Both the position numbers and the translations under genes were made by a program. Source: an uncultured Solirubrobacterales bacterium (lineage in GTDB: Bacteria > Actinomycetota > Thermoleophilia > Solirubrobacterales > 70-9). Taken from it: 64,000 bases of DNA. Below, piece after piece: positions 6,036-50,238 of this stretch. The DNA lies in assembly GCA_963732225.1 (NCBI GenBank), contig CAVSYR010000004.1, positions 82,710 to 146,709 on the forward strand, given 5' to 3'. Within the stretch, counting starts at the first letter, position 1; each line of letters opens with the position of its first letter. The notes under the pieces were generated by a model. It was not told where the DNA came from. It did not search any database and saw nothing but the letters and a program-made list of their open reading frames with translations.

Positions 6036-6075
6036 TTAGATTCTCCTCGCCTGACTTGTCTCTTCTGGTTGGTGG

Positions 6076-6120
6076 GGGGCCCGAGCGTCGAAATGCGACT
6101 GGACGCTGCGCTCGAGCCCC
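6076..6120 (-). terminator. Intercistronic stem-loop between the collagen-like gene and the giant gene (possible attenuator or partial terminator), copy 1
   Basis: GGGGCCCGAGCG (6076-6087) pairs with CGCTCGAGCCCC (6109-6120) at 11 of 12 positions. A differently sequenced hairpin occupies the equivalent position in copy 2 (20201-20229). There is no U-tract. Confidence 0.3.
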
Positions 6121-6133
6121 AATCAGAGTCGCG

Positions 6134-6918
6134 CTAGCCGGTCACCGCCCAGGTTCCGCTGCCGACATGGAAGCCCCCTTCGGCTTCTGAAACCAGGAGG
6201 ATGGCGCCGGAGACGCTCGCCCCGAGTCCGAAAGTGGCCGGGTCCTGGACCTGGACGAGGGTCGCGCCGGCAAGGGCCCCCGCGTAGACGCAGAGGTAGC
6301 CGGGATCGGCCTCGGGGTTGGCGGCACCCGCAGTCCCGGCGTGTTCTTCATTTTCGCAGTGTTCGTTGGTGGGGTCGTTGATGATCGTGTGACTTGCTTC
6401 GGTGATCGGAGCGGCAAGCGGGATGTCGAAGGAGAGCGGAAGACCCGCCGTCACCCCACCGTTGTAGCGCCAGACGCCGGTCTCGGTCGCCTTCGAGGGA
6501 AGGGTGCCTCCCGCGGTCCAAGGTTCGCCTTCGGGACCCGGGGTGCCAGCTTCACCGTTGCAGACGTATTTCTTGGTGGCCGGTTCGCCGGCGACTTCGA
6601 CGCTGGAGCCGCCTTCGCCACAGTTGGCGCCAGGTTCCTCGTTAGCCACCACCACCGACTTGCCGTTGGTGCCGGGGCTGCCGTTTGCACCGGGTGCCCC
6701 GTCTTTGCCGTTGGTGCCGTTAGTACCGGGTCACCAGCAGCCCCAGCCGGCCCAGTCCCCTGGAAGCTCTTCGCGATCGCCTTGACTTCCTTCTTCTGCT
6801 TGCCGTTGAGGCCGGAGGCCGCGATGGCGCTTCCCCCTACGGCGAGGACGATGGCAATAACTCCAAGCACCAAGCCTGCGGTGCCGAAACGGTCTTTAAA
6901 GCGGCGGTAGAGAGACAT
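6134..6918 (-). pseudogene. Membrane-anchored collagen-like (Gly-X-Y) protein with a globular C-terminal domain, cassette copy 1. One frame change lies inside the Gly-X-Y tract.
   Basis: ORF 6451-6918 gives the N-terminus (MSLYRRFKDRFGTAGLVLGVIAIVLAVGGSAIAASGLNGKQKKEVKAIAKSFQGTGPAGAAGDP...). ORF 6134-6655 gives the rest (...GKSVVVANEEPGANCGEGG...GSGTWAVTG*). Together they are collinear with the intact paralog at 20251-21048. One missing base near 6725-6729 (GACCCGGTACT, expected CCCGGGT) would restore GDPGTNGTNGKDGAPGANGSPGTNGKS. AGGAGG lies upstream of the ATG. Confidence 0.8.
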
Positions 6919-7491
6919 CAGTGCTTTTCCTCCTGTGTGTGGGTTACGTCTTCCCCTCCCACGGGGAGGAGAGCTGCGTGGCCCTCGCGCCGCGCGAGGC
7001 GGCTCGAGGGGGACGTGAGTCGAAGGTCTGCGGCGGCGGCGCTCACCCGGAGGAGGAGCACGGCGCCGGGGTCGAGGTCGGGATGCGGCGGGGCGAGCTC
7101 GGGGAGGCGAGAATCGCGAGCTGGCGGCTTGGGGAGGTGTGATGCGAATGCTTCAGAGCCGAGGACGTCGACGCGGCCGGCGAGTTCAGCTCCCCGCCGC
7201 TCGCTGCTCTCGATGACACGCGGGCCGACAAGCCGAACGGCGCCAGCGAACGCAGACGGGGCGAAGCCGGTGAGGCCTGTGCCTGCTGCGCTTTCACTGC
7301 GATCGGTCCTCCCTGGTCCGGTGCCGCTTCGCCGCTGTCCCGATTCGCATCTGCTGCGAATCCCCTGACCGCGGCGGGTTGGCCGTTTTCTTTCCTCCGT
7401 CCGGGGAGCCGATCCGCGTTGCCCTTCCGGGGCGCTGCGGTTGTCCTCCCTGGACGCTGGTAATGAGAACAGATGTCTACCAGAATGTCAA
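6919..7491 (-). promoter_or_regulatory. Long 5' leader plus promoter-like block of cassette copy 1 (candidate structured cis-regulatory RNA)
   Basis: Core 7291-7491 is about nine-tenths identical by eye to 22829-23030 upstream of copy 2. It includes TTGACA (7491-7486, minus strand) and hairpins with conserved stems and variable loops (GAUUCGCA-loop-UGCGAAUC; GCCC-CGGAA-GGGC). A conserved CCTCC-CCGTG-GGAGG hairpin sits just before the RBS. No convincing -10 hexamer could be placed. Confidence 0.5.
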
Positions 7492-7862
7492 GGATCAATT
7501 TGTTGGGGCGATTTGGCCTAGCCGGAGGAGTTGGCTTGTTTAGGCCTTTAGCGGCCTCAAATCCGTGTGCTGCACGGCTATCTATAAGAACGACAGCGAG
7601 CCATAACGGTGCCCATTGCCTTCGACCGCGGGACGGTGAGCGCTCGCCCAGAGCGGTTTGGAGGCTGCTGCGGCGTCCAGGCCACAGTTGCTGTGGATGT
7701 TCGCTATCCGAGAGGGTTTCGGGTCAAAGCACAACCCCGGCAGGCGCAGTTGCGCAGAGCCGCAAGCTCCTGGTCTAGCTCGTCACCTACGCAGACACTG
7801 CCCACCGATGCGGCGGCCGGATCGGGCAGGGTCGAAGCGATGATGCAATGGCGCCCGATCGG

Positions 7863-8159
7863 CTACTGGATCTGAGCGCTGAAAGCGAGAGTGCCGAGAG
7901 AATCGCCGGCGTGGAAAGACGTCTTTGCCTGCGGCGAAGGGCTGGTTGGAGTAAGTGGCGGTGCCGGTGGTCAAGGTCAGCGGCGCGGCGAGATCGCGAT
8001 CGTGCGGGCGAGCGGGTCGGAGGCCGAGCCGGCGGAGCTAAGGTCGAGGATCGGCACTTGGCCGAGCTTTTGGGCGGTGGATCGGGGTTCGATCAGCCAA
8101 TCCAGACCCCCTTTCGCGGCTGCAAGCACGGCACCTGGCGGCGTCCTCGGTCGCCCCAA
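7863..8159 (-). pseudogene. Orphan 3' fragment (distal copy) of the C-terminal domain of gene 8664-10001
   Basis: Pieces from ORFs 7977-8159 and 7783-7974 read KLGQVPILDLSSAGSASDPLARTIAIS..APLTLTTGTATYSNQPFAAGKDVF.AGDSLGTLAFSAQIQ* after at least two frame corrections. It has its own TAG at 7865-7863. It is collinear with the last ~90 aa of the 445-aa protein. Confidence 0.6.
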
Positions 8160-8271
8160 TAGCCGTTGCTATGGGGCTTCCTGCGTCGCGTTGCCAGGCT
8201 TGGCTTTCGCTCGCGAGAACCGGGCCTGTCTAACGGGCCGAACCCCTCCCCCCGCTTAAGCTTAGGATTGA

Positions 8272-8550
8272 TCACTGCGCCTGCGCAACAAAGGTCGCGG
8301 CACCGAAAATCTCGCCCGGATGAAAGGTGTCTTTACCGCCAGCAAAGGCCTGGTTGAAATAGGCAGCGGTGGCCTCAGTCAAGCTGAGGGGAGCCCCTGC
8401 AACGGCGATCGTGCGCGCCACCGGGTCACTGCTAACGGCTCCGGCGCCTAAGGCAAGGACTGGAACCTGTCCCAGCTTTCCAGGGAAGGTCGGTGCCGGC
8501 TCCTCATCAATTCCGCCCATCTGCTCTGCTCCCGCTCGGGCGGAATCATC
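8272..8550 (-). pseudogene. Orphan 3' fragment (proximal copy) of the C-terminal domain of gene 8664-10001; in frame, with a possible ATG at 8520
   Basis: The tail of ORF 8272-8667 reads MGGIDEEPAPTFPGKLGQVPVLALGAGAVSSDPVARTIAVAGAPLSLTEATAAYFNQAFAGGKDTFHPGEIFGAATFVAQAQ*. The intact gene ends VEPTPTFPGKLGQISIAGIDLAPATINSDPKARTVSVGGAALTLSPQTAETFNEAFAKPQGKADVFRAGESLGTISFTAQTQ*. Confidence 0.6.
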
Positions 8551-8663
8551 ACAACCAGAGATCTTCCGCCCGAGCTCCCGCGTCCGCGATGGGCGGGTTT
8601 GGTGGGACCTGCTCAGGTTCTGTGACTCAAGCGCTGGGGGCGGAAGTTGGCGGCGACATACGG

Positions 8664-10001
8664 TCATTGTGTTTGGGCCGTGAAGGAGATGGTCCCAAGT
8701 GATTCACCGGCACGAAACACGTCGGCTTTGCCTTGAGGTTTGGCAAAAGCTTCGTTGAAGGTTTCGGCCGTCTGTGGCGAGAGGGTAAGAGCGGCTCCGC
8801 CGACGCTTACTGTGCGCGCCTTCGGGTCCGAATTGATCGTCGCAGGGGCCAAGTCGATCCCAGCGATCGATATCTGGCCTAGTTTCCCCGGGAAGGTGGG
8901 AGTGGGCTCAACGTCGACTTCGACGAGAGTCGTTGTGGCGGCAGGTTCGAGCCATGGTTCATGCCAAAACACCTGTCCAGCGCCCAGTTGCAGGTATTCG
9001 ATGCCACCGCCCAACCGGATTTGGCCGCTGCGACCGTCGGGGGCGATTACGCCCGAGCCGACGAAGGGAAATGTGAAGAGAGGGCCCGGCTGCCGTTCGC
9101 CTGGAGATATTGGATTGAGAGAAACGAAGAGACTGTCGAGCTTGACGATGAAGGCGGGGTCGGGCGTCAGGGTGGCGCGACCGACGGGCAGGATCGCGAC
9201 GGTGGCGGGCTGGGCGGTGGAGCGCAGGGCGCCGAGCCGCTGGCCGGCTTCGAAGACGCCGTGCAGGCGCAGCTTCTTGGCGAGGCGGGTGGCGAGCTTC
9301 GCCGAGAGGCGTAGGTCGCTGGCGGTGAAGCTCGAGCCGAAGCCGGCCCGGGAAAAGCTGCGCTTCTTGGCGGCGGCCAGTTTGAGCTGACCGCCGCCGA
9401 CCTTGGCGATCAGCGGTTCCGGCTTTGTTTTGACGACGATCTCGCGCAGCGGGACGCGGTGGGCGCCGCGCTCGAAGACGAGGGCGCCTTCCTGGTCGAT
9501 CTCGCCCTTTTGCTCGGCGGGGTCGAGGGCGCCGCCGGAGACCGGCATCGTGTAGACGTGGCCGCTGCGCTTGGCGGGCGCCGTGGCCGTGAGCTCGACG
9601 CCGTGGGCGGCGAGCAGCCGGACGAAGCCCTTGTCGAGGGTCAGCTTCGTGATGCCACCACCTAGAGGGTCGTAGGTGGCGTTCGCTGAGGGGGCGAACG
9701 TGAGGAGCGCTGTGGCGAGAACGCCACCTAGGAGGGCGGCGAATCGGCCGTGGCGGCGATTCGACCGGACGATGATTGGGGACGGCGGACCTTGGGCGTG
9801 GTTGGCAGGGCCCTCTGGCAATCCCGGGGATGAGTCAGATTGCGACCCGGGATTGCCGGAGGGCTGGTTTTGAATAAATGCCGCATGTCCTCCGCTCCCG
9901 CTCGCTGACGCTCGCTCCCGCGTCCGGGCATGCGGCTGCCCGTCAACCCTGTGAGGTTCACGCTGTGCAACCCGGGTCAGGTTTGCGGCTGGCGGGTTCA
10001 T
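8664..10001 (-). CDS. Secreted or membrane-anchored protein (445 aa) built from two related halves
   Basis: The ATG overlaps the upstream stop (ATGA at 9998-10001). Hydrophobic segment RFAALLGGVLATALLTFAPSANA. The ~85 aa before that segment are low-complexity, so the true start is uncertain. There is a loose, unverified resemblance to HtaA-type domains (...LTL..TAE.FN.AF....F..GE.LG). Confidence 0.7.
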   Translation of the reverse strand: MNPPAANLTRVAQREPHRVDGQPHARTRERASASGSGGHAAFIQNQPSGNPGSQSDSSPGLPEGPANHAQGPPSPIIVRSNRRHGRFAALLGGVLATALLTFAPSANATYDPLGGGITKLTLDKGFVRLLAAHGVELTATAPAKRSGHVYTMPVSGGALDPAEQKGEIDQEGALVFERGAHRVPLREIVVKTKPEPLIAKVGGGQLKLAAAKKRSFSRAGFGSSFTASDLRLSAKLATRLAKKLRLHGVFEAGQRLGALRSTAQPATVAILPVGRATLTPDPAFIVKLDSLFVSLNPISPGERQPGPLFTFPFVGSGVIAPDGRSGQIRLGGGIEYLQLGAGQVFWHEPWLEPAATTTLVEVDVEPTPTFPGKLGQISIAGIDLAPATINSDPKARTVSVGGAALTLSPQTAETFNEAFAKPQGKADVFRAGESLGTISFTAQTQ

Positions 10002-36083: not shown

Positions 36084-36113
36084 GATCGCGCCAAACAAAT
36101 GAAGCCAGACCAA
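36084..36113. repeat. Direct repeat DR-A (27/30 match to 49956-49985)
   Basis: GATCGCGCCAAACAAATGAAGCCAGACCAA vs GATCCCGCCAAACAAGTGGAGCCAGACCAA. Confidence 0.6.
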
Positions 36114-38626: not shown

Positions 38627-39589
38627 GTGGCGAACGAGTGGCGCGACATACGGGCGATGCGAGCCGAACCACCGGGTCTCGCGCTCAGAGACCCGCGGCG
38701 CCGCAGGGTCTTCACCGCCGCCCTCCAACAGGCCGAGGAGCTCCACCAGGCCGCGGAGGCGACCGGTTATGCGAGCCGCCCGCTGCCGCTCTTCTACGCC
38801 CTCAGCCAGGGCGGCCGGGCGATCGCCGCGGCTCGGGCCAGCGGTGCCTGGAAGATCAGGGGCCACGGGATGCGCTGCGAGTCGCGGCGGCGCTCGGTCC
38901 TCGACACGCGGCTGAGTGTGACCGCTTCGGGAGCCATCCCGATGGTGACTCGCGCCACCGGCTCTCCTTCCTACGAGACGCCGGTCAAGCTCGGGGCGCT
39001 GCTCGCCTCCCTCCCGGAGGTCTCCGCCCGGGCGAACTCGCTGGTCAAGGGCCCAGCGACGATCGCCCTGTACCCCGATGAGACGGCCGCACGCGATGAG
39101 CGCCACCGGCAGCTTTCTCCGCCGCTCGGCTTTTCGGGCGTCTACTTCGGGCCCGAGGGCTCGCTGCCACCCGCCGAGCAGCAGGAGGGCCTGCGCCGGG
39201 CGCTCCGCCCCTATCCCCGCGCCCAGGGCTGGCAGAGTCACAGCGCCTGGATCACCAGGGATGGGGTTCGCGGCATCGGGCTGAGCTGGCCGATCGCCGA
39301 GCAGGGAGTCCGGGGCTACCGGGCGCTGGAGGTGGTCGCGACCCGGGTCGGCGACCTCTATTACCTACGGCCCGGGCTCGGCAAGGACGGTGGCGAGATC
39401 AGCGTCCTGATGAGCTGGTGGGCGGTCCTGCTCGGCCTTTCGAGTCTGGCGCGATACGAGCCGGCCAGCTGGCGCGCCGGGCTCGACAGCGATTCCTCGC
39501 CGATCTCCTCGCTGCTCGAGGAAACCCTCGACCACGCCCAGGAGCGGGTCCCCCAGCTGATCCGCTGGGCCCTGGCGGAGGCCGCGTGA
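38627..39589 (+). CDS. Hypothetical protein (320 aa), possibly YaaC-like
   Basis: Intact ORF with ordinary composition. RPLPLFYALSQGGRAIAAA and the C-terminal ...SVLMSWWAVLLGLSSLARYEP..W recall the YaaC family only loosely. It sits directly upstream of the STAND gene. Confidence 0.55.
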   Translation: MANEWRDIRAMRAEPPGLALRDPRRRRVFTAALQQAEELHQAAEATGYASRPLPLFYALSQGGRAIAAARASGAWKIRGHGMRCESRRRSVLDTRLSVTASGAIPMVTRATGSPSYETPVKLGALLASLPEVSARANSLVKGPATIALYPDETAARDERHRQLSPPLGFSGVYFGPEGSLPPAEQQEGLRRALRPYPRAQGWQSHSAWITRDGVRGIGLSWPIAEQGVRGYRALEVVATRVGDLYYLRPGLGKDGGEISVLMSWWAVLLGLSSLARYEPASWRAGLDSDSSPISSLLEETLDHAQERVPQLIRWALAEAA

Positions 39590-39637
39590 GCGAGCGGCAT
39601 AGACGGTTGCGCACGGGCACCGAGCGCGGGGGTACCG

Positions 39638-42600
39638 ATGCCCACCGGCCTGAGCGGCTCCGGAAGCCTCAAGCAGATCCGCAGCTGGGACGGCTCCCAG
39701 ACGCGAGCCTTCGAGGAGCTCTGCTTCCAGCTGCGCGACCCGACGCCGCCGGGCGCCGAGCTGCGAAAGACCGGCGACCCCGACGCCGGGGTCGAGTGGT
39801 ACTGGCTGCTCAACGACGGCGCCGAAGTCGCCTGGCAGGCCAAGTTCGTCTTCGACACCAGCGGACTGTTGAGCCAGATGCGGAAGTCCTTGAAAGCGAC
39901 CGCCGGGAAGCGACCCGAGCCTGCAGCAAGATGAACTTCTGCATCCCCTACGACCTCGCCGATGACCCGAGCAGGGCCCGGGGCAAACAGGCCCGCGAGC
40001 GCTTCGAGGAGGCCAAGCAGGACTGGCTCGAGTTCGCGCCTGGGGTCGAGGTCGGGCTGCTCAGCGGCGGCGAATTGCTCGAGCGCCTCGCCCTCGAGCG
40101 TCACCGTGGCCGCGAGCACTTCTTCTTCGGTGAGCGCCTGCTCGGGAGCGAGTGGTGCGAGCACGAGCTGAAGGCGACGATCGAGGACGCTGGCGATCGC
40201 TACACACCCGAGCAAGACGTCGCGCTTCCAATCGACGAGATCCTTGAATCGGTCGCTCAGCCTCCATGGCTCGAGGCAGAGCTCCGCAAAAAGGTCGACG
40301 CGGCGCTACTCGCCGCCAAGGAGGTCCTGAGGCGCGGCGACCCGGAGCGTCCCTGGGCTGGCCTTCCTTGCGGAGATCCGAGACTCCCTCGGTCGGATCG
40401 AGGAGGCCGAGCCGATTGCCGAGCTGCCGCCGGCGCTCGAATCGAAGCTACTGCTCGAGGCGACCGGCGAAGCGCTTGAGGCGCTCGATCGCCTCTACGG
40501 CGAGATCTATCCCCGGATCCGCACCGCGGAAGAACGCCGGCCGGCCAGCGGGGAGGTGGACGAGGCAAAGAAGATCGCGCTGGCAAGCGAAAAGCGGCTT
40601 GCAGAAGCTGCCTCGTCGCTGGCGCCGAGGGCGCGCCATCTCGGCCAGACCCTGCGCGAGCTCGAAGACTTCCTGCGGGGTCCCGCCTGCCAAGGAGCCG
40701 AGCGTCGGGCACTGTTCGTCCACGGACCGGCTGGGCGGGGCAAGACTCATCTCTTCTGCGACGTCGGCGAGCGGCTCCTCGCCGAGGGCCACCCCGTGCT
40801 CGTCCTGCTCGGAGAACGCTTCCGCGAGGGCTCGGTCTGGCGCACCCTGGCCGCGGCCCTCGGCGAGCCTGGCCTGAGCGCCGACGAGGTTGCAGGCGTG
40901 CTCGCCGCCTCGGGCGAGGCGAGCGGCCGGCGGGCGGTGCTGCTGATCGACGCGATCAACGAGACCAAGCCCGACCCCGGAGTCTGGTCGGCCGAGCTCT
41001 CCGACGTCCGGCGCCGGCTCACCGAGAGCGGCTGGGTCGGCCTGGCGGTCAGCTGCCGCGACACCTACCTGGATTGGTCAGAGCCGGCCGGAGGACCCGA
41101 CCAAGAGTTCGCGCGGGTAGAGCACCTCGGCTACCGCGGCCGCGAGCACGAGGCGGTCGAGCGGATCTTCGCGGTCCACGGCCTCGAGAGTCCCGCAGGT
41201 GCCACTCCTGCTTCCCGAGTTCAGCGACCCGCTCTTCCTAAAGCTCTACTGCGAGGGCCTCAAGGACAGCGGCCGGCCCGCGACCGGAAGTGAGCACCTC
41301 TCCGAGGTGTTCGAGAACTTCGTCCAGGCGCGCGGCGAGTCGGGTCGAAAGCACGCTGCGCCTCGATCGCAACCTCGGGCTCGGTGCGCCAGGCGATCAA
41401 CGCCCTCGCCTCGAAGTTCGTCGAGTCGCGGCGGCGAGCGGATCCCCTACCCCGAGGCCGCCAAATTGATCAACGCCCTGGCACCCAACCTGAGCAGCTC
41501 ACCGGAGACTCTGATCGAGCAGCTGATCAGCGAGGGCCTCGTCGCTCTCGACCGCGCCTGGCTTGGCGAGGAGCCGGGCTGGTCGAGGCCGTCGGCTTCC
41601 CCTATCAGCGCTTCTCCGATCACATGATCGTCGGCGCCTACCTCGACGCGCAACCTGGCCGGAGCCTCGCCGGAGGCGCTGACCGCCGCCTTCGGAGCCG
41701 GCGGACACTTGGAGCAGTGGCTCGGCGAAGCCCCGCTCGGGCAGGTCGAGGCTCTGGCCGTGACGCTTCCCGAGCGCTGGGGAGTCGAGCTTCCCGACCT
41801 CTACCCCGACGATGGCGAGGGCGCCGCCTGGATCGACGCCACTTCGCGCTCTCCTCGTTCCTCGCCAGCTTGTGATCCGCGATCGCGACGCCTTCGGGGC
41901 ACGGGCGGCGCCGCTCCTGAACGAGTCGCTCGACCTGATGCCGGAGGACTCGCTCGATGCCCTCGTCAGCGTCAGCGCCGATCCCGCGCCATCCCTACAA
42001 CGGCTCGCGGCTACACGCCTTTATCGAGGCGATGCCGATGGCAGATCGCGACGCCTACTGGGGGATCGCGACCTACGACTCCTTCGCCAACCCCGGTACA
42101 GCGCTCGACCGCCTGGTGCGCTGGGCTGCCCGGGGCCCCTACCGCACCTACACAGACGAGGTCGTCGAGCTCGCCACGCTACCGCTGGTCTGGCTGCTCG
42201 CGAGTCCCAACCGCTTCGCCCGCGACTACACCACCAAGGCCCTGGCCAGCGTCCTGATCGGTCGGCCGGAGCTCGCCGGCGCGCTGGTCGAGCGCTTTGC
42301 GGGCGTCGACGACCCCTACGTGGTCGAGCGGCTGGCGGCCGCGGTGGCTGGCTCGGTGATGCGCGCCGAGCGCAGCGATGCGACGGCGGTGCGGGGGCTG
42401 CTCGAGAAGCTTGTCACCAACTTGATCGAGGGTCGCGAGAAATCTCCTGATCTCCTGACCAGAGACCACATCGCCTCGCTCGCCCGCCTCCTGCGCGCGC
42501 CGCGGGCAGATCCCGCCCCGCTGGCATAAGCGGGCGTTGCCCCCTTATGAGAGTAAGCCCCCGAAGCGTCCGCGCAGCGCCAAGTACCTCGAGGAGACCT

Positions 42601-44219
42601 ACCCGGCGGCAGAGGACGGAGCGGGTTTCGAGGAGCTGCAGCGATCGGCGCTCGCGGACTGGAGCGACTGGTCACGCTACGAGGTAAGTGGCCGGATCGA
42701 CAACTTCCTGGCCACCAGGCTCGGTGAGCCCGTTCCGGAGCCCGAGCCGCCTGAACCTCTTGAAGATCTGAGGATCAGCAAACGTGGCTGGAAGGCGTTC
42801 GTGGCGTCTCTCGATGAGAGCCAGGGCGAGCTGATCGCCGGAGGGGAATTTTCGGCGGAGGAGCTCGTCGACTCCTTCAGCGACGAGCAGGCCCTCCTGC
42901 TGACCCGCGCCTACGTGCATAAACGGAGGAAGAAGGTCCCGCAGGCAGCGCGCCAGGCGATCCCCTTGGAGCGCGCCAGGCGACTGATCTTTCAGCGCTG
43001 CATCGAGCTCGGCTGGACCCCCGAGCGCTTTGGCCACTTCGACTTCAGGGTCGGGCGTCGCGGAGGGCTGCGGGAGTCCCACAAGGGCGAGCGCTTCGGC
43101 AAGAAGTACCAGTGGATAGCCCTCCACGAGCTGCTGGCGAGGCTGGCCGACAACTTCACCTTCAAGGAATGGGAGGAGGTCGAGCCCTACGAAGGCGCCT
43201 GGCAGATCTCGACCCGAGACATCGATCCGAGCCTCCCCCCGGAGCCGATCACGATTGGTGAGGACCAGGAACACCGCCGTGGCCCCGCCTTCTCCGTGGA
43301 CCCCGTCGTGAGCTGGTGGACCACCGGTGCTCCAGACTTCGAGGCAGGCGAGCCCGGCGGCGAGCTCGAGTGGACCGAGGACGCCGAGGCGATGCCCGCC
43401 CCCGAGAAGCTGCTGCGGGCGAGGGACGACTCCGATCGGGCCTGGGTCGTGGCCGACGGCTTCTTCGGCTGGAGCCACGACTTCGACGACGTCCCGAGCG
43501 TCAGCCGCGAGCCGGAGGCACGCAGGGACCTCACGATCAGGGCGCTGGGGACTGTGATCCGCCACGAGTCACTCGCGAAGCTTCGGCGCTGGCTCGCCGA
43601 GGAGCCGGATCTGCTGCGGGCGATGCCCGACTGGCAATACCAGGCGATTCACAACGCCTTCTGGGTGGAGCTACCCGAGGAGGCAAGCACACGTGGCCGC
43701 CCCGCGGGATGGCGTCCGGCCCGCGGGGAGGGACGCCTGCCGATCCGGTCGGCTGCCGTGGCGCTCAGCTACTCGGCCGAAGCGAGCGGCGCCGACTGCT
43801 CTCTCAGCAGCGGACTCAACGTCGACCTCCCCTCGATGTTCATGGCGAAGCTGGGTGGCGCCCGCTGGAGCGAGGTCGCGCGGATGTGGGTGGACCGCGA
43901 CGACAGGCCCTTCGCCCAGTTTCGCCAGACCGACGAGGGTTTTCGCCGCGATCACGCCCTCCTCCTCGCCGAGGATGCACTCGCGGAATTGCTGGCGAAA
44001 GAAGAGCTCGTGCTGGTGATCGGGCTCTTCAGCGAGCGCCGTGCCTTCGAGCACTCCGAGTACCGCGGCCGGTCAGAGATGATCGGTTGGACCGACTACG
44101 CCGGTCACCTGATCTTTGACGGTGAGAGTTGGAAATCGGGTCCGATGACCCCGGTTGAGCGTCACCACCGTAGGGTGTCCGCGGACGGCGATCGTCTCGA
44201 CAATGGGGCCGCGGAATGA
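39638..44219 (+). pseudogene. Large (~1520 aa) nuclease-STAND NTPase, Avs-like candidate antiphage protein; about 9-10 frame changes in the first 2.9 kb
   Basis: Concatenable segments: PD-(D/E)xK-like N-terminus (FEELCFQLRD...GDPDAGVEWYWLLNDGAEVAWQAKFVF); KMNFCIPYDLAD...; Walker A ALFVHGPAGRGKTHLFCD; Walker B-like AVLLIDAINE; LFLKLYCEGLKDSG; FPYQRFSDHMIVGAYL; then long helical regions including the intact ORF 42537-44219, which is open upstream into ...RGQIPPRWHKRALPPYES. Confidence 0.7.
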
Positions 44220-44283
44220 CGTCGGTGAAAGCGACCTGAGTCAGTTCCGCGGCACCGCGACAGCGCGTGGGGAGCGGCGGGGC

Positions 44284-46921
44284 TCAGTCCCGCTTGAAGA
44301 CCAGGGCGCTGGAGGTGAAGACCTCGGCGTACTCGGTTTCGCCGACCATCTCTAGCCCATCCCGCTCGGCGATCTCGAGCAGTCGATCGACGTCGAGGCC
44401 CCAGCCGGCGGCGATCGAGGAGAGGATCAGGTCACCGAGGTCGATCGCGACGTCGTTGGGGATCTCGACCAGTTCCCCAAGAACACCTCCGCTGCCGACC
44501 CTCGAGCCGACGATGGTGTCCTCGGCGGGGACGAACGTTGACTCGCCGCCCGCGTGAATTAGGTCTTCCTCCTCGACCTCGGGCCAGTAGACGATCCTGT
44601 CCTGCTCGGAGGACCACACCCTCAGCTGCTCTCGGTTTAGGGCATTGTCGAAGCCCCGGCAGATCGGCAGGCCAGAGACGTCAGCCCCGAATCCCGCCAG
44701 CATCGCCGCCATCGAAATCCCCTCGTCACCGTCGAGTCCCGAGTCGACCCAGAGCGCGGCCTGCTCGCCCGCCCACTCGGTCAACCGCTCGGGAGGTAGC
44801 AGCGCCCGGCCGGAGGCCCGGGCGAGGTTGGGGGTGTCGGCGAGCAGGACGCCGAGCATGCGTGATCCGGAACGTGCCGCCAGCCCTCCGATCGTGACCA
44901 GGGCAGGGGCGTGATCGCCATAGAAGAAGCCCGAGCTGATCGCCGCCGCGCGCCCCACCAACTCGCCCCCGGCGCCCCGCAGAGGGCGGATCCGATCGGT
45001 CTGAGCCCGGTTGGCACCGGCTCCGATCCGCGCGACTAGCTCCTCCGCGGGCAGCTCCCGCCAATCGTCCGCGTCGACCACGGGGATCTGCTGCTCGCCC
45101 AGCTCCAGGACTAGGTCGACGCCGATTGTCGGGCAGAGGCGACCGAGTACCACCGTCGGCTCGGATCGCAGCTGCCCCGCTTCTCTGTGGCCAGGACTCA
45201 CCGGGACCTCGAAGCTGACCTCCGTGCCCGCTTCGGCGAGGCGCTCGGCGGCCTCGGCGCGGCGCAGGGTCGCCCTGCGGGAGAGTCCCTGGGGGAACTC
45301 CAGCACGTAGGTGTCGGCCGTGGCGCTGGTCGTGGAACCGCGAACGCACCCGCACCGGCCGGTCGAACATGAAGACTGAGAAGAACCCGATTCCGAAGCG
45401 GCCGATCGGTTCGAATTGCGTCGCGGCGAGGCCCGGGATCAGCTCGGGGAGCGAGGGATCGCGCCACAGCGAGCGGCCGAAGTCGAGCAGAGGGCCCGCG
45501 AGCATCTCGCGACCCATGCCGACCCCGTTGTCGGTGACCGTGAAGCTGAGCATCTCGCCATCGCCCTCCTCGATGCGCACCCGGATCTGACCGTGCCCCC
45601 ACTCCGGCAGGAGGTCGCGACGGGCGTTGACGGCATCGATCGCATTCTGGATCGTCTCCCGTAGCGGGACCAGGGGCCTGTCGCCATAGAGGTGGGCGCC
45701 TCCCATCCGCCGCACCAGCGAGGTGACGTCGGAGATTCGCAACTGGGCATCGACCGGCTCCCAGCCCTCGACCCGAATCGACCCCCGGAGGGCGGCCGCG
45801 TCGTGGGCCTCCGCGACGCCCTTTATCGCGAAGGTCGGGCGCCGGAGATCCTGCAGGAGGGAGTCGACCGCACGCAGCTCGTCATCGGCGACTCCGAGCA
45901 TGTCGTAGCCGAGCCACCAGGCACCGGCCTCGGCGCGCTCGAACGGACGGGTGGTCTGGTAGCGAAGCCGCGAGCCTGCCGTCGCCGGGCGGGCCAATCG
46001 CTCCTGCAGTTCCCAGTGGGTCATTCCCTCCCCGCGGGGTTCTTGGGCGAGGCGCAGGAGAGGAGGCGCTCGCCGAGCATCGAGGTGACAGACATCGGCA
46101 AGCCTCAGCAGCGCAGCGATCTTCAACGCGTCCACCGGCCACTCGGGGGGCATCTCGCCGACGATCAACTCGAGCGTCTCGAAGCGGCGCAGCTGGCCGA
46201 CGCTCAACCAGTGGCTCGCCGCCAGCCGGCCCGAGAGGTCCCCGAAGGCACCGCGAAGCTCCTCCTCGTCGACGAGGTAGCGGCAACCCTGATCGGAGTT
46301 GAGCGCGACCCGCGCGATCGTCACTGCCTGCTCGGCATGTCGTTTGCGCAGGACGATGCGGTCGGCCTTAACCCGTTGCTCCTCGGTCGCCGCGTGCAGG
46401 TCGTTCTCTGTCGGCGCGCGCCCGTCCTCCTGGCGAAGCACGACCCCCAAGGAGTCGGACCACTCGGGAGTCTCGCGCAGCTCCTCGCGGCCTCCGGGGT
46501 AGGCGGCGACGGCGAGGCCGAGATCGTGAAGCAAGACGGCGACCCCGAAGACGAACCCCTCGGCGGGGTTGAAGGTGATCTCCTCCCCACCGATCTGCTC
46601 GGCTAGGGACCAGAGGGCGTCGAGGTGGGTCGCGTCGTGGACGGTGAAGTCGGGCAGGTCCTCGCTGATCTGCCCGGCGATCTCGGAGGCCAGCTCGCGG
46701 GAGCGCTCGAGCTGCGCCCGCAGGCGCCTGCGGGCGCCCAGGTCGACGCACTCCAGCTCGGGGCCCAGGCTTTCCTGCCAGAGTCTGGTGCGCTGGTACT
46801 CGGGTATGGCCTCTCCAGCCTCCACGGAGAGCAATCTAGATCGAATCCGCCTCACTTGACTGGACCGCTGAGCGCGGACCAGGGCGCCGGGCACCCGCGT
46901 AGCGTTGAGCCAATGCAGCAT
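44284..46921 (-). pseudogene. HD-domain plus GHKL (HATPase_c-type) ATPase fusion protein (~879 aa) with one frame change
   Basis: HD region: FTVHDATHLDALWSLAEQ...VAVLLHDLGLA. Bergerat-fold motifs: ETIQNAIDAVNA, TVTDNGVGM, GRFGIGFFSVFM. ORF 44726-46921 joins ORF 44284-45306 (TYVLEFPQGLSRRATL...) near 45310-45345. Confidence 0.8.
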
Positions 46922-48037
46922 GGCGCGTCAAGGACGGAGGTGGTCTATGCGTGGCCGCGGCTCTCGAAGCCGCAGCCGCGGGTCCCGATCGCCTACCTGG
47001 ACCTGAACCACTGGATCGGTCTCGCGAAAGCCGCCGTCGACCATCCAGACGGGCGCAAGAGCGCGCCCGCGCTAGAGGCCCTCCGAGAGCTGCGGGCCGC
47101 TGGGGAGGTCTGCCTGCCTCTCAGCTCGACCCACTACATGGAGATGACGCGGATCGGCAGCTCGCGCCAGCGCTTCGACGTCGGCGCGGTGATGGAGGAG
47201 CTCTCCGACTTCGCCTGCTTGATGAACCGCACGATCCTGATCCGCCTCGAATTGGACGCCGCGATCCGCGCCGTTCTCGGCAGTGAGGAATGGCTCTATG
47301 CCGGGCTCCCGCTAATCGGCAGGGGTGGCATGCAGGCGATGGGGATGCGAGGGGATCTGGTGGTCCGCGACGGAGACGGCAACGACGTCACCGCCCAGGC
47401 CAGGAGGGAGTTTCGCGATGGCCCGGCCGCCTTCGACCGCTGGCGCAGGGACGCCGAAGACCGGCTGAGCCGCTCCTTCCTTCGCGGCCCGAGCAACGAG
47501 GAAGAGCCGGCGTTGCGGGCGGAGGGCTGGGACCCCGAAAAGGCCACCGCGCTCGGACACAAGCGCGCCGAACAGGAGAACGAACATGCCGCAAGGCTCG
47601 CCGCCGACCCCCGCTGGCGGCGGGGAAGGCTGCGGGATGTGGTCGCGGGCCGCTACCTGGCGCTCGAGGTCTTCGACGACCTCAACGACTGCCTGGGCCG
47701 GTGGGGCGTCGATCTCTCGGAAATCTGCTCTGACCCAGAGTCGGCGAGGCGGTTCTCGGACTCGATGCCGGGAGCGGATGTCTGGATCACGATGCTGACG
47801 GCGATGCATCGCAACCCCCAGACCAGATGGAGTGCCAACGACATCTACGACGTGGACGCGCTCTGCGCCGCGGTCCCCTACTGCGACTTGGTGGCCACCG
47901 AGCGCCACGCCGCGCATCTGCTCCACGTCGCCGGTCTGCCCGAGCGCATCGGCACGACCGTGGTCGCGAGCTTGGACGAGGCTGTGGAGGAGATGGTCTC
48001 CCTGGTGCGTTTGAGATCCACCTCCGCAGCGGCCTAG
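46913..48037 (+). CDS. Hypothetical protein (374 aa) divergent from the HD-GHKL gene
   Basis: Sensible sequence starts at MQHGASRTEVVYAWPRLSKPQPRVPIAYLDLNHWIGLAKAAVDHPDG... ATG at 46913 and the divergent ATG at 46921 share the palindrome ATGCAGCAT. A GTG near 46940 is an alternative start. Confidence 0.65.
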   Translation: MQHGASRTEVVYAWPRLSKPQPRVPIAYLDLNHWIGLAKAAVDHPDGRKSAPALEALRELRAAGEVCLPLSSTHYMEMTRIGSSRQRFDVGAVMEELSDFACLMNRTILIRLELDAAIRAVLGSEEWLYAGLPLIGRGGMQAMGMRGDLVVRDGDGNDVTAQARREFRDGPAAFDRWRRDAEDRLSRSFLRGPSNEEEPALRAEGWDPEKATALGHKRAEQENEHAARLAADPRWRRGRLRDVVAGRYLALEVFDDLNDCLGRWGVDLSEICSDPESARRFSDSMPGADVWITMLTAMHRNPQTRWSANDIYDVDALCAAVPYCDLVATERHAAHLLHVAGLPERIGTTVVASLDEAVEEMVSLVRLRSTSAAA

Positions 48038-48548
48038 GATCGATCCATGACCGATGGCGGCTCGCTTGATCAACACCGAGCGCTCGACGATCGGGGAGAG
48101 CAGCTGCCTGACGAAGGCGAGCGAGAGATCGGCTTCGGCTCCCAAAGCATGTAACTGGTCGTGCGCGAGTATTACCTGCCGGAATTGGCTCGGTAGAAGG
48201 GAATCGAGCCGGTTCTCGATCGCCTCAGTCCCGACGGGGATAGAGCATCGACCGCATCATGCCGCGGTCCTCAGCTTCCTCCGAGCTAGTGATCCACCGC
48301 CTGCGGGGCTCATCCATGCTGATGCCGCCGAACAAGTCCGCCCAGACCAAGCATTCGCCATTGTCCGGGTGGAGACGAGCGCAGCCGTTCTGGACCGGTT
48401 ATGGCGTGAGGACTGAGCTAGCCCGCCGAGAAATGGGTGACCTAAACGATCTGCTGGGGCCGACACCGAGGCCGCCCTGCGATCGCCTTCAACTCGAAGG
48501 TGCCTCTAGCGACAAGAACTGAGCCGGGGAAGATGAAAGGCTTGGGCG

Positions 48549-48776
48549 ATGGCAACTTTCACCAATTGGTACGTGACCGTGGTTCTCGAAGTGGCTGGAA
48601 AGCAGCAGACAATCCGGGGTCCCTCGCGTAGCAGCGAGGAGGACACCAAGGCCGATCTGAAAGAGCTCCAGGAGTTGCTTGGCAGCGGAGAGTGGATCAA
48701 CCTCGACTGGATCTCAGCCAACCCCAAACACGTCGTCGCCGCCCACCTGGACAGCACCAGCATCGGAGTCTTCTAG
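48549..48776 (+). CDS. Small protein (75 aa) coupled to the TIR-like gene
   Basis: MATFTNWYVTVVLEVAGKQQTIRGPSRSSEEDTKADLKELQELLGSGEWINLDWISANPKHVVAAHLDSTSIGVF. Its TAG overlaps the GTG of the next ORF by 1 nt. Confidence 0.5.
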   Translation: MATFTNWYVTVVLEVAGKQQTIRGPSRSSEEDTKADLKELQELLGSGEWINLDWISANPKHVVAAHLDSTSIGVF

Positions 48777-49876
48777 TGCTGCTCCACGTGATGATCCGCC
48801 GCCTGGGCGAGGACGGCGGACGCACTTTTTCTTTCAACCGCAGCGCCGAGTGGGTCGGCGAGCGAATCGTCGAACCCTGGGAGCGTGGAAATGAGCTGGT
48901 CATAAATGGCGAGCACTGGGAGCCGCGCCGGATCCGGGTCGCCGTGCGGGAAACTGCAAACGAAGTCGTCGTCGGCGAGTCGGAGCTCTCAAGCTGGGCA
49001 GAGCTCGAGCCGAACTCGACCGAGCGCACCGATGAGTTGCTGGCACGTCCCGCGGGGTCGGCCGGCGAGGCCGACGAGATTCATCTCGCCGCCGACCGGC
49101 GCAAGGTGATGGTTGTCATGGGCCGCAACTCGGAGATCGGCGCGGCGATGTTCGAGTTCTTGCGCGCGATCGATTTACGCCCGCTGGAGTGGACGGCGCT
49201 CGTTGGTGCGGCCAATACCGGAGCCCCTTATATCGGTCAAGTGCTCGACGAGGCCTTCGCCCAGGCTCAGGCCGTAGTGGTTCTCTCGACCCCCGACGAC
49301 ATTGCTCACTTGCGCCCCGAATTGGTGCCCGAGGGTGACCCAGAGGGCGAGGCTGCGCCACGAGGCCAGGCGCGCCCGAATGTCTTCTATGAGGCGGGAT
49401 TGGCGATTGGACGGTTTCCGAATAGGACGATCTTCGTGGAGGTCGGAACGATGCGTCCCGCGAGCGACCTCGGCGGGATTCACACGGTGCGGATGAACGA
49501 AGGTCCCGAGTGTCGCCGCGACCTCGCCCAACGGCTGGAGCGTGCACGCTGCGAAGTCGACATGGATGGCACCGACTGGCTTAGCGCGGGGACCTTCAGT
49601 GCACCCGGCGAGCCCCAGGCAACGCCGGCGGAGGAGAGCGGCGACGCTGCTCCGGACAGCGCGCTTGTGCGCCGCATCGATGCGTTCCTGGCGAGTCTCA
49701 CCGGTAACGGTCAAGCGTCGACGATCCAGGCCCAGACTTTCAACCAACTGCTGGACGAATCAGGGATTGCAGGCATTCCCCGTGCTGTGTCGAGCATTTT
49801 TAGTGGCCGCTCGGAAATGACCCACGAGGACATGCGAATGCTCCTCAACCAGATGAGAGCGGGACTCTCGAGCTAG
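48776..49876 (+). CDS. TIR-like nucleotide-binding domain protein (PF10137 / Cap12-like class) with extra N- and C-terminal domains
   Basis: KVMVVMGRNSEIGAAMFEFLRAIDLRPLEW...AQAVVVLSTPDD...RGQARPNVFYEAGLAIGRFPNRTIFVEVGTMRPASDLGGIHTVRM. This follows the recalled family pattern VFIVHG...LTPDD...RARQNVIFELGYF...PSDL.GI. ATG at 48791 is an alternative start. Confidence 0.75.
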   Translation: MLLHVMIRRLGEDGGRTFSFNRSAEWVGERIVEPWERGNELVINGEHWEPRRIRVAVRETANEVVVGESELSSWAELEPNSTERTDELLARPAGSAGEADEIHLAADRRKVMVVMGRNSEIGAAMFEFLRAIDLRPLEWTALVGAANTGAPYIGQVLDEAFAQAQAVVVLSTPDDIAHLRPELVPEGDPEGEAAPRGQARPNVFYEAGLAIGRFPNRTIFVEVGTMRPASDLGGIHTVRMNEGPECRRDLAQRLERARCEVDMDGTDWLSAGTFSAPGEPQATPAEESGDAAPDSALVRRIDAFLASLTGNGQASTIQAQTFNQLLDESGIAGIPRAVSSIFSGRSEMTHEDMRMLLNQMRAGLSS

Positions 49877-49955: not shown

Positions 49956-49985
49956 GATCCCGCCAAACAAGTGGAGCCAGACCAA
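49956..49985. repeat. Direct repeat DR-B (partner of 36084-36113), 180 nt from the tRNA 3' end
   Basis: See DR-A. On the minus strand both copies read LVWLHLFG(G/A)I near a stop codon. Confidence 0.6.
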
Positions 49986-50164
49986 AGTGTCGATGTGACC
50001 AATAAGAGCCGCATCGAAAACCCGCACGATGTAGCCGTTATGTAGCCACGAGCAGCTGGCGAGGGTCGGAACCGCGCGGAGCGGCGCGGACCGGGTGTCC
50101 GAGGTTCGGTGGAGGATTCGGCTTTCCTGAGCCAAAAACCGGAATACTCCGGAATGAAGCGGAG

Positions 50165-50238
50165 CGCGCCCGACAGGATTCGAACCTGTGACCTTCGGTT
50201 TCGTAGACCGACGCTCTATCCAACTGAGCTACGGGCGC
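50165..50238 (-). tRNA. tRNA-Arg (anticodon ACG)
   Basis: Cloverleaf read by eye: acceptor GCGCCCG/CGGGCGC, D arm GCTC-AGTTGGATA-GAGC, anticodon arm TCGGT-CTACGAA-ACCGA, T arm ACAGG-TTCGAAT-CCTGT. It is 74 nt and CCA is not encoded. Confidence 0.9.

Follow-up and report, generated by a model that had tools for sequence, protein, structure and literature searches.

A PF10137 TIR protein with a small upstream partner: a candidate two-gene conflict module of Solirubrobacterales-type Actinomycetota

NADases with a TIR domain act as central immune effectors in bacteria, plants, and animals. To our knowledge, it is understood in few cases only how these enzymes are silenced and switched on without a second messenger. 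This question is raised by a gene pair found in a stretch of 64,000 nucleotides from an uncultured Solirubrobacterales bacterium (GenBank contig CAVSYR010000004.1), to which we refer as the window. In the region 48549–49876 of the window an open reading frame (ORF) for a protein of 75 amino acids (aa) is followed directly by the gene for a 366-aa protein with a TIR-like domain. An initial annotation, made from the sequence alone, had offered two possibilities for this locus, a compact two-gene system or an orphan effector. Our analysis favors the former over the latter. The pairing is obligate, and no signal generator is found in the window. The pair combines a probable TIR effector of the family PF10137, extended by a C-terminal domain, with a small obligate partner that is new.

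Does the small ORF really belong to the TIR gene? Related loci were collected by two routes, via the small protein (loci L060–L076, 12 distinct sequences) and via homologs of the TIR protein (L001, L084–L087, and L098). In all 12 distinct loci of the first set the TIR gene is located directly downstream of the small ORF on the same strand. The second set provides a test that is not circular, and here the small ORF is present in six of six loci found through TIR homologs of at least 50% identity. One of these, L001, contains the sole full-length TIR relative among 185,579 species representatives; the other five originate from look-ups of TIR homologs at 50–60% identity. The small ORF is thus conserved next to the TIR homologs, and both findings on which the initial annotation had staked its proposal, this conservation and a profile match to the TIR-like families (see below), were obtained. 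No other neighboring gene is conserved around the pair in the loci compared, and therefore the unit consists of exactly two genes. We also considered a third component: nothing that corresponds to the 360-aa gene at 46955–48034 or to the ORFs in 48054–48522 of the window is found in the related loci, and the cyclase, the BrnTA-like genes, and other neighbors seen elsewhere are lineage-specific. That the pair is a real two-gene module is practically certain.

The two genes are joined in a characteristic manner. As annotated initially, the TAG stop codon of the small ORF and the GTG start codon of the TIR gene have one base, G48776, in common, and the coordinates of both ORFs could be confirmed (Table 1). 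The TIR frame is also open 5′ of this codon, to a GTG at position 48692, and the alternative product would have 394 aa. About 45 full-length homologs begin with MP[IF]HVLIRRL, which aligns with residue 1 of the 366-aa form, and in the homologous loci the TIR start codon overlaps or abuts the stop codon of the small ORF; the 366-aa start is therefore supported over the 394-aa form. Ten of the 14 distinct junctions show a 1-nt overlap (TAGTG, TGATG, or TAATG), two are directly adjacent, and two have a 3-nt spacer. The junctions read in four of the five loci found later (all but L085) are an overlap, an adjacent junction, and spacers of 3 nt and 6 nt, once each. Given this conserved stop–start distance of −1, 0, +3, or +6 nt, translation of the TIR gene would be coupled to that of the small ORF. 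A fusion of both ORFs by a programmed −1 frameshift was considered and rejected: the TIR frame is closed right at its start codon in L001, L069, L073, and L074; in addition, there is no conserved overlap and no canonical slippery heptamer in the window sequence. The motif GAAAGG upstream of the small ORF would serve as its Shine–Dalgarno sequence, and a related motif, tGcAAGGCT, is located at equal distance in several homologous loci. The GGAG within the end of the small ORF is possibly an internal ribosome-binding site of the TIR gene; the motif shares bases with the codon for Gly73, a residue that is nearly invariant in the small protein, and GG-rich counterparts are present in the homologous loci.

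The evidence shows the small ORF to be a genuine gene. Its protein is conserved, evolves under purifying selection, and is syntenic in all loci checked, which is beyond chance. The homologs form 26 clusters with 60–83% identity and have a length of 75–79 aa except for one call of 88 aa; many residues are invariant in their alignment. The median dN/dS is 0.11 and the maximum 0.31 (73 pairs from 18 distinct DNA sequences). The protein is acidic with an isoelectric point of 4.9, and AlphaFold2 (AF2) predicts a long β-hairpin (residues 3–23), a helix (30–46), and a C-terminal strand (62–73) with a pLDDT of 79. It has no match in Pfam, NCBIfam, PHROGs, or PADLOC, its predicted fold has no Foldseek match in the PDB or the BFVD at E < 1e-3, and its profile finds nothing significant among the PDB sequences. 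An exhaustive profile search of 1.8 billion representatives returned only 23 matches, of which about 15 are free-standing proteins of 64–78 aa that keep the pattern G.+EI.SP.F.S.EEA ... G.W[IL][ED]L[DP]W[IL]S ... AAH after the hairpin.

Several relationships of the small protein were considered and given up. That it is a paralog of one of the TIR protein's domains, or mimics one, found no support: hhalign comparisons with the profiles of the N-terminal, TIR, and C-terminal domains gave probabilities of at most 1%. The resemblance of its helix and "DWISAN" to the helix and "DWLSAG" of the effector (residues 243–273) is not significant, with 16 of 200 column shuffles reaching the real score. Repeat proteins among the weak matches had prompted the idea that the β-hairpin–helix half is an AP2-like DNA-binding element. 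This idea was dropped; Pfam detects no AP2 or other DNA-binding family in the small protein or in the weakly matching repeat proteins.

The larger protein has about 45 full-length homologs with 47–68% identity, and compared to their consensus its gene is intact. The initial annotation had compared its central domain to the PF10137/Cap12-type TIR-like pattern, and the search with hidden Markov models bears this out strongly. PF10137 matches residues 110–241 at model positions 1–118/119 with 83.2 bits (cut-off 24.7, E 1.8e-23), and a PF10137 search of the own genome finds the protein again at 85.8 bits. In PADLOC the protein is matched by the models of PDC-S35 (E 1.1e-14) and PycTIR (2e-6) and by generic TIR effector models. 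Its single match in PHROGs is a family without annotation, and neither the full profile nor the TIR domain finds anything significant among the PDB sequences. Invariant in 35 of 35 aligned homologs are G116, T172-P-D-D175, R200-P-N202, E206-A-G208, and S230-D231. These residues make up the signature of the family, including the glutamate motif R-x-N-V-x-x-E-x-G and the motifs G-x-D/N and TPDD. The glutamate E206 aligns with the E of RARQNVLYELG in a PF10137 protein of the F plasmid and is, in analogy to published work on this TIR clade, the predicted catalytic residue.

The AF2 model of the 366-aa protein (pLDDT 88) has three folded parts. An N-terminal domain (residues 1–90) with the order β-β-α-β-β-β-α and block-mean pLDDT values of 90–97 is followed by the TIR core (110–241), to which the conserved helix and the DWLSAG element are attached up to about residue 273. 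The C-terminal domain (293–366) is folded as α-β-α-β-α with block means of 88–97, the linker blocks before it having values of 52 and 77. With Foldseek the best match in the PDB is TIR-STING (9lmq; probability 1.00, E 3e-3) at a TM score of 0.26–0.29, which is low because the whole three-domain model was used as query. Further matches are other TIR domains, DNPH1 (E 0.03), and nucleoside 2′-deoxyribosyltransferases (E ~0.1). The two domains flanking the TIR core, for which the initial annotation could name no family, are indeed folded in the model (~100 aa and ~75 aa) and have no match in Pfam, NCBIfam, or PHROGs. A word search restricted to the C-terminal domain returned the query alone, so that this domain was not found in other architectures. 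Both flanking domains are the fastest-evolving parts of the TIR protein: the mean identity amounts to 50% for the N-terminal and 45% for the C-terminal domain, compared to 74% for the TIR core and 69% for the small protein.

Table 1. Positions of the gene pair, its signals and domains, and the neighboring tRNA gene in the window
Feature	Position	Strand	Remarks
GAAAGG, Shine–Dalgarno-like	48535..48540	+	8 nt before the ATG of the small ORF; read from sequence
Small partner gene	48549..48776	+	ATG 48549, 75 codons, TAG 48774–48776
GGAG within the end of the small ORF	48765..48768	+	7 nt before the TIR start codon GTG; read from sequence
Stop/start overlap TAGTG	48774..48778	+	TAG of the small ORF and GTG of the TIR gene, common base G48776
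Gene for the three-domain TIR-like protein, 366 aa	48776..49876	+	GTG 48776–48778, TAG end at 49876
N-terminal α/β domain, residues 1–100; candidate sensor or docking domain	48776..49075	+	AF2; no family match
PF10137 CAP12/PycTIR-type TIR domain, residues 110–241	49103..49498	+	Pfam
Codon of Glu206, RPNVFYEAG motif, predicted catalytic glutamate	49391..49393	+	alignment
Post-TIR helix and DWLSAG element, residues 243–273	49502..49594	+	C246 nearly invariant, C259 invariant
C-terminal α/β domain, residues 293–366	49652..49873	+	AF2; follows a variable low-confidence linker, 275–292
tRNA-Arg(ACG)	50164–50238	-	adjoins the repeat-bounded block

How might such a pair work? Members of this TIR clade have been described as NADases that work with a catalytic glutamate, are activated by oligomerizing into filaments, and prove toxic in the absence of restraint; in some of them the restraint comes from an N-terminal element (10.64898/2026.04.30.722052). 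On this published behavior of the PF10137 clade we base our model of an effector that depletes NAD+ independently of a second messenger; the NADase chemistry, the physical binding of the partner, the direction of regulation, and the role in defense are parts of the model that we infer. The 366-aa protein would be the effector, its TIR domain hydrolyzing NAD+ once oligomerized, as is suggested by its likeness to the TIR domains of the CAP12/Pycsar clade, and the faster-evolving N- and C-terminal domains would control it or sense. The 75-aa protein would be the obligate partner, encoded on the same mRNA and made just before the effector by way of the conserved stop/start overlap. Binding to the effector is probable, with the N-terminal domain as the most likely site, and would gate the assembly. 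The most likely role of the small protein would be that of a safety catch: the NADase would stay inactive for as long as this partner is in place, and a trigger linked to infection would remove or displace the partner.

We do not hold all parts of this model with the same confidence. We consider it probable that the 366-aa protein is a conflict effector of the TIR NADase type. The proposal that the two genes form a self-contained conflict module, in which a TIR NADase is gated by its 75-aa partner and which acts by abortive infection or in a toxin–antitoxin (TA)-like manner, is evenly poised. Only tentatively do we assign an inhibitory function to the small protein. Three points favor inhibition. 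The small gene comes first and its stop codon overlaps the start codon of the effector gene, an order that is classic for antitoxins. In two loci, L068 and L070, the small ORF has stayed intact next to a frame-broken TIR gene. Finally, such TIR proteins are intrinsically toxic.

A cooperation of the small protein with the effector's N-terminal domain has weak support, drawn from few lineages. A subgroup of the three-domain TIR proteins lacks the small ORF, and we compared it to a partnered subgroup chosen for its similar divergence. The identity to the core group is 0.29 in the N-terminal domain of the partner-less subgroup versus 0.41 in the partnered one, whereas the values are 0.69 in both for the TIR domain and 0.32 versus 0.34 for the C-terminal domain. 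In addition, the nearly invariant W74 of the TIR protein is replaced only in the three sequences of the partner-less subgroup. A mirror-tree analysis does not single out any one domain of the TIR protein as the counterpart of the small protein, since the r values lie at 0.72–0.78 throughout.

Some observations weigh against the model. For the TIR fold, Foldseek gives weak E-values, the best being 3e-3, PDC-S35 is itself only a candidate system, and the pairs of L073, L075, and L086 sit among housekeeping genes. The strong conservation of the small protein does not fit especially well to either a fast-evolving sensor or a typical antitoxin. In L085 the small ORF appears to be frame-broken next to an intact TIR gene, which is unexpected for an essential antitoxin and may be an assembly error. 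The small ORF is absent from P0042 and P0044 (47–49% identity), two loci of the three-domain subgroup that has diverged most, and from about ten relatives of ~300 aa that consist of the N-terminal domain and the TIR domain without a C-terminal domain; P0051 and P0054 (39–42% identity) lack it as well. As partner-less relatives exist, inhibition is not intrinsically required. Because of these relatives and of L085, the same two genes might also work with the small protein as a positive component, either as sensor of the trigger or as adaptor or co-activator that nucleates the oligomerization of the TIR domains, for example after binding a phage protein. The strict co-occurrence and the coupling of both genes suit an obligate subunit of either sign, an enzyme with partner-less relatives has no inherent need of an inhibitor, and an intact TIR gene beside a possibly broken small ORF would be tolerable if the partner were an activator. 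In addition, single-chain TIR defense proteins sense phage proteins directly, as is described for SpbK and the phage protein YonE. From a direct sensor of fast-evolving phage proteins one would expect more variation than is seen in the small protein, which is more conserved than the N- and C-terminal domains of the effector. The antitoxin-first layout and the two loci with a decaying TIR gene and a retained small ORF also speak against this interpretation. We regard a function of the small protein as activator or sensor as rather unlikely.

Three further explanations concern the signal, the chemistry, and the small ORF itself. The TIR protein could be an effector of the Pycsar or CBASS type that is activated by a cyclic nucleotide, the cyclase being located elsewhere or lost and the small protein being an accessory. 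PF10137 is the family of the effector TIR domains of Cap12 and PycTIR, TIR-STING is the best structural match, and oligomerization-driven depletion of NAD+ would be the expected mechanism here as well. However, the PycTIR match in PADLOC (25 bits, residues 55–256) covers mostly the TIR domain, the NCBIfam model of Cap12 (NF050171) reaches 13.9 bits versus a cut-off of 450, and Pfam detects no STING, SAVED, or cNMP-binding domain in the TIR protein, including its N- and C-terminal domains. The remark of the initial annotation that no sensor or signal generator is obvious holds: there is no cyclase in the 64-kb window, hence no adjacent PycC, and no SMODS/CD-NTase (PF18144) match in the whole 3.0-Mb genome (93% complete). 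As cyclase and CD-NTase are missing from the window, the module is not a CBASS or Pycsar system. The genome does contain six class III cyclase genes (PF00211), which are all located on contigs C2 and C5 and not on C4, the contig of the window. A PycC-like cyclase of 324 aa (PADLOC PycC 1.9e-12, weak Pfam match to Guanylate_cyc) is found divergently upstream of the pair in one lineage only (L070 5679–6653 (−), L071 2700–3674 (−), and L072 3660–4634 (−)). It is not accompanied by a consistent effector gene downstream, a BrnT/BrnA-like pair separates it from the module in L071 and L072, and in the other lineages no cyclase lies beside the pair. Activation by a cyclic nucleotide therefore appears very improbable to us. 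A chemistry other than that of a NADase is improbable, too. Within the TIR/NDT/DNPH1 fold class, the enzyme could be a different N-glycosidase or could process nucleotides, cleaving, for example, nucleotides or nucleosides in defense or metabolism. The substrate cannot be read from the sequence, and DNPH1 and nucleoside 2′-deoxyribosyltransferases do appear in the Foldseek list. Against this stand the best fold match, TIR-STING, the patchy and mobile-element-linked distribution, which ill suits a housekeeping salvage enzyme, and the specific profile membership in PF10137, whose characterized members are reported as NADases (10.64898/2026.04.30.722052). Finally, the stop/start overlap would be compatible with a mere translated leader that regulates the downstream gene and whose peptide is without function. 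This we consider next to impossible in view of the amino-acid conservation with many invariant residues, the low dN/dS values, the confident predicted fold, and the distant free-standing relatives of about 75 aa that keep the same motif pattern.

With a gated TIR NADase as the preferred interpretation, the question arises whether a system of this kind has been described before. PDC-S35 is a single-gene phage-defense candidate in PADLOC, one of 145 candidates (Payne et al. 2024, bioRxiv 10.1101/2024.01.29.577857). The TIR core of the 366-aa protein matches all five PDC-S35 models, and in both cases the TIR domain follows a variable N-terminal region and stands without an attached cyclase. The score of 52.8 bits, however, rests mainly on the TIR domain and compares to 219 bits for the member on the F plasmid. 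Moreover, the models stop near residue 264, and the 366-aa protein has the extra C-terminal domain of ~75 aa and the obligate upstream partner, whereas PDC-S35 is a single gene. As the score is far weaker and both an extra domain and a partner gene are present, the 366-aa protein would be a peripheral relative of PDC-S35 at best.

The closest analog in organization is yuaX–yuaY on the F plasmid (NC_002483, locus L096, 41216–42395 (+)), with only the TIR core being homologous. There, a gene for a 96-aa protein overlaps the gene of a 299-aa "nucleotide-binding protein" (PDC-S35 2.3e-65) by 11 nt. As in our pair, the small gene lies upstream and overlaps the next gene, whose product joins a variable N-terminal domain to a PF10137 TIR domain, and the catalytic motifs align (RARQNVLYELG in YuaY and QARPNVFYEAG in the 366-aa protein). 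The TIR cores, on the other hand, have 24% identity (E 2e-8), the N-terminal domains do not align, the two small proteins have no relation to each other (hhalign probability 0.1%), and YuaY is devoid of a C-terminal domain. The hosts differ as well, namely plasmids of Enterobacterales versus chromosomes of soil Actinomycetota. A literature search found no paper on the present pair or on yuaX–yuaY. Immediately beside yuaX–yuaY lie pifA, coding for a P-loop NTPase, and pifC (42445–45760 (−)); pifA/pifC is the classical exclusion locus for phage T7.

Other systems are similar in single aspects. SpbK is a single-protein TIR NADase of the element ICEBs1 of Bacillus subtilis that is triggered by YonE; it is thus a stand-alone TIR NADase on an integrative element in which a non-TIR domain senses the infection without a second messenger. 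The 366-aa protein has a weak fold match to 9phb. In contrast, SpbK belongs to a different TIR subfamily, is a single gene without a small partner, and shows no detectable sequence similarity. Type II TA modules with toxins that target NAD+ are known, for example RES-Xre/NatT-NatR and MbcT-MbcA. The present pair has the layout of a type II TA module, that is, a co-inherited operon of two genes with the small upstream gene overlapping the candidate toxin gene. The product of the latter is predicted to be a potentially lethal NAD+-consuming enzyme, and the patchy occurrence on mobile DNA is likewise shared. The fold of the putative toxin is TIR and not RES/ART, however, and in the small protein no recognizable DNA-binding or known antitoxin fold or family was found (Pfam, NCBIfam, and PADLOC; PDB folds at E < 1e-3). 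Thoeris consists of a signal-producing ThsB-type TIR protein and a separate signal-sensing effector, and the present pair does not have this composition. Its only conserved partner is a soluble 75-aa protein without an effector or sensor domain, and the TIR domain is of the effector type, as a member of the PF10137 clade.

Related genes with other arrangements were also seen. The genome of the window encodes a second, unrelated stand-alone PF10137 protein of 298 aa with the canonical ARARQNVIFELGYFIGKLG motif (L077 1426–2322 (−), that is, contig C2 at about 307.9 kb). It has a different N-terminal region, and among ORFs of at least 60 aa no small partner is evident. In Labedaea and Lentzea, distant relatives with an N-terminal domain and a TIR domain are accompanied by a homologous downstream gene (262–291 aa, motif FRDFLYYD...) which overlaps the end of the TIR gene (L019 6824–7699 (+) and L032 6888–7676 (+)). 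This suggests that other subfamilies of the TIR family recruit different partners.

Where is the pair located, and how is it distributed? The initial annotation had placed it at the edge of an island, and indeed it is the last coding unit of a block of 13.9 kb between 27/30 direct repeats (36084–36113 and 49956–49985). The right copy starts 80 nt past the stop codon of the TIR gene and lies ~180 nt from a tRNA gene. The block fits an integrated element beside tRNA-Arg. The pair is intact, whereas two other genes of the same block look frame-broken. At 38627–44219 (+) there are overlapping ORFs in different frames, the last of which (42537–44219, 560 aa) matches the C-terminal third of Avs2 in PADLOC (E 2.4e-77). 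This looks like a large STAND defense gene of the Avs2 type broken by frameshifts, due to decay or to errors in the long-read assembly. The region 44284–46921 (−) codes for HD-CE (PF24391, 4.5e-41) and a GHKL ATPase. The 731-aa HD-CE/GHKL frame turns into Arg/Pro-rich nonsense past about residue 540 and continues in an overlapping 340-aa ORF (44284–45306), so that the region is probably one frameshifted gene for ~880 aa.

As in the window, the genomic contexts found elsewhere point to mobile or defense DNA. The pair occurs beside tyrosine integrases and transposases (L070–L072 and L084), the integrase gene following right after the pair, and near AbiEii/PDC-M21, BrnT/BrnA-like, HigB-like/HTH, and PemK modules and an AriA/GajA-like ATPase. 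In L087 the pair is directly followed by genes for a 645-aa ABC ATPase resembling AriA, GajA, and PtuA (PADLOC AriA 2e-23) and for a 453-aa protein without assignment (5385–8717 (+)), which probably are another defense system. Directly upstream of the pair in L071 (3775–4402 (+)) and also in L072, L065, and L066 we noted genes for a 132-aa protein and for a second, unrelated 75-aa protein, the latter gene being found upstream of the pair in L060, L062, and L063 as well. By eye, both proteins resemble a TA system of the BrnT/BrnA type, and they are absent from the genome of the window. A phage origin of the pair was considered and rejected, as in viral contigs no relative of the small protein was found and only a single TIR-only relative. 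The pair is rare and horizontally spread. In a survey of the phylum it was present in one of 401 genomes, the one of the window, and in none of six family-level relatives. The named relatives are metagenome-assembled genomes of Solirubrobacterales, and the pair was seen almost only in soil Actinomycetota of the Solirubrobacterales type and in metagenomes.

What does this pair mean for the TIR family? It is a compact system of two proteins of 8 kDa and 40 kDa with a strictly co-inherited partner that matches no fold family, and its rarity narrows the scope of the finding. Possibly, though we regard this as doubtful, the 75-aa protein founds a new family of dedicated regulators of TIR NADases, in which a β-hairpin/helix protein would dock on a novel N-terminal domain as a trigger-sensitive lock, for example as a guard or decoy attacked by phage factors. 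Together with the unrelated yuaX–yuaY, a small partner combined with an N-domain–TIR protein would then be a general and repeatedly invented two-part architecture for TIR immunity that is independent of second messengers. If the pair were merely a TA-like couple of a NADase and its inhibitor, the small protein would still represent a new antitoxin family. If, on the other hand, control of a TIR protein of the CAP12/Pycsar clade by such a partner is demonstrated, this would be a new regulatory principle, and a class of candidates resembling PDC-S35 would become a defined two-component system.

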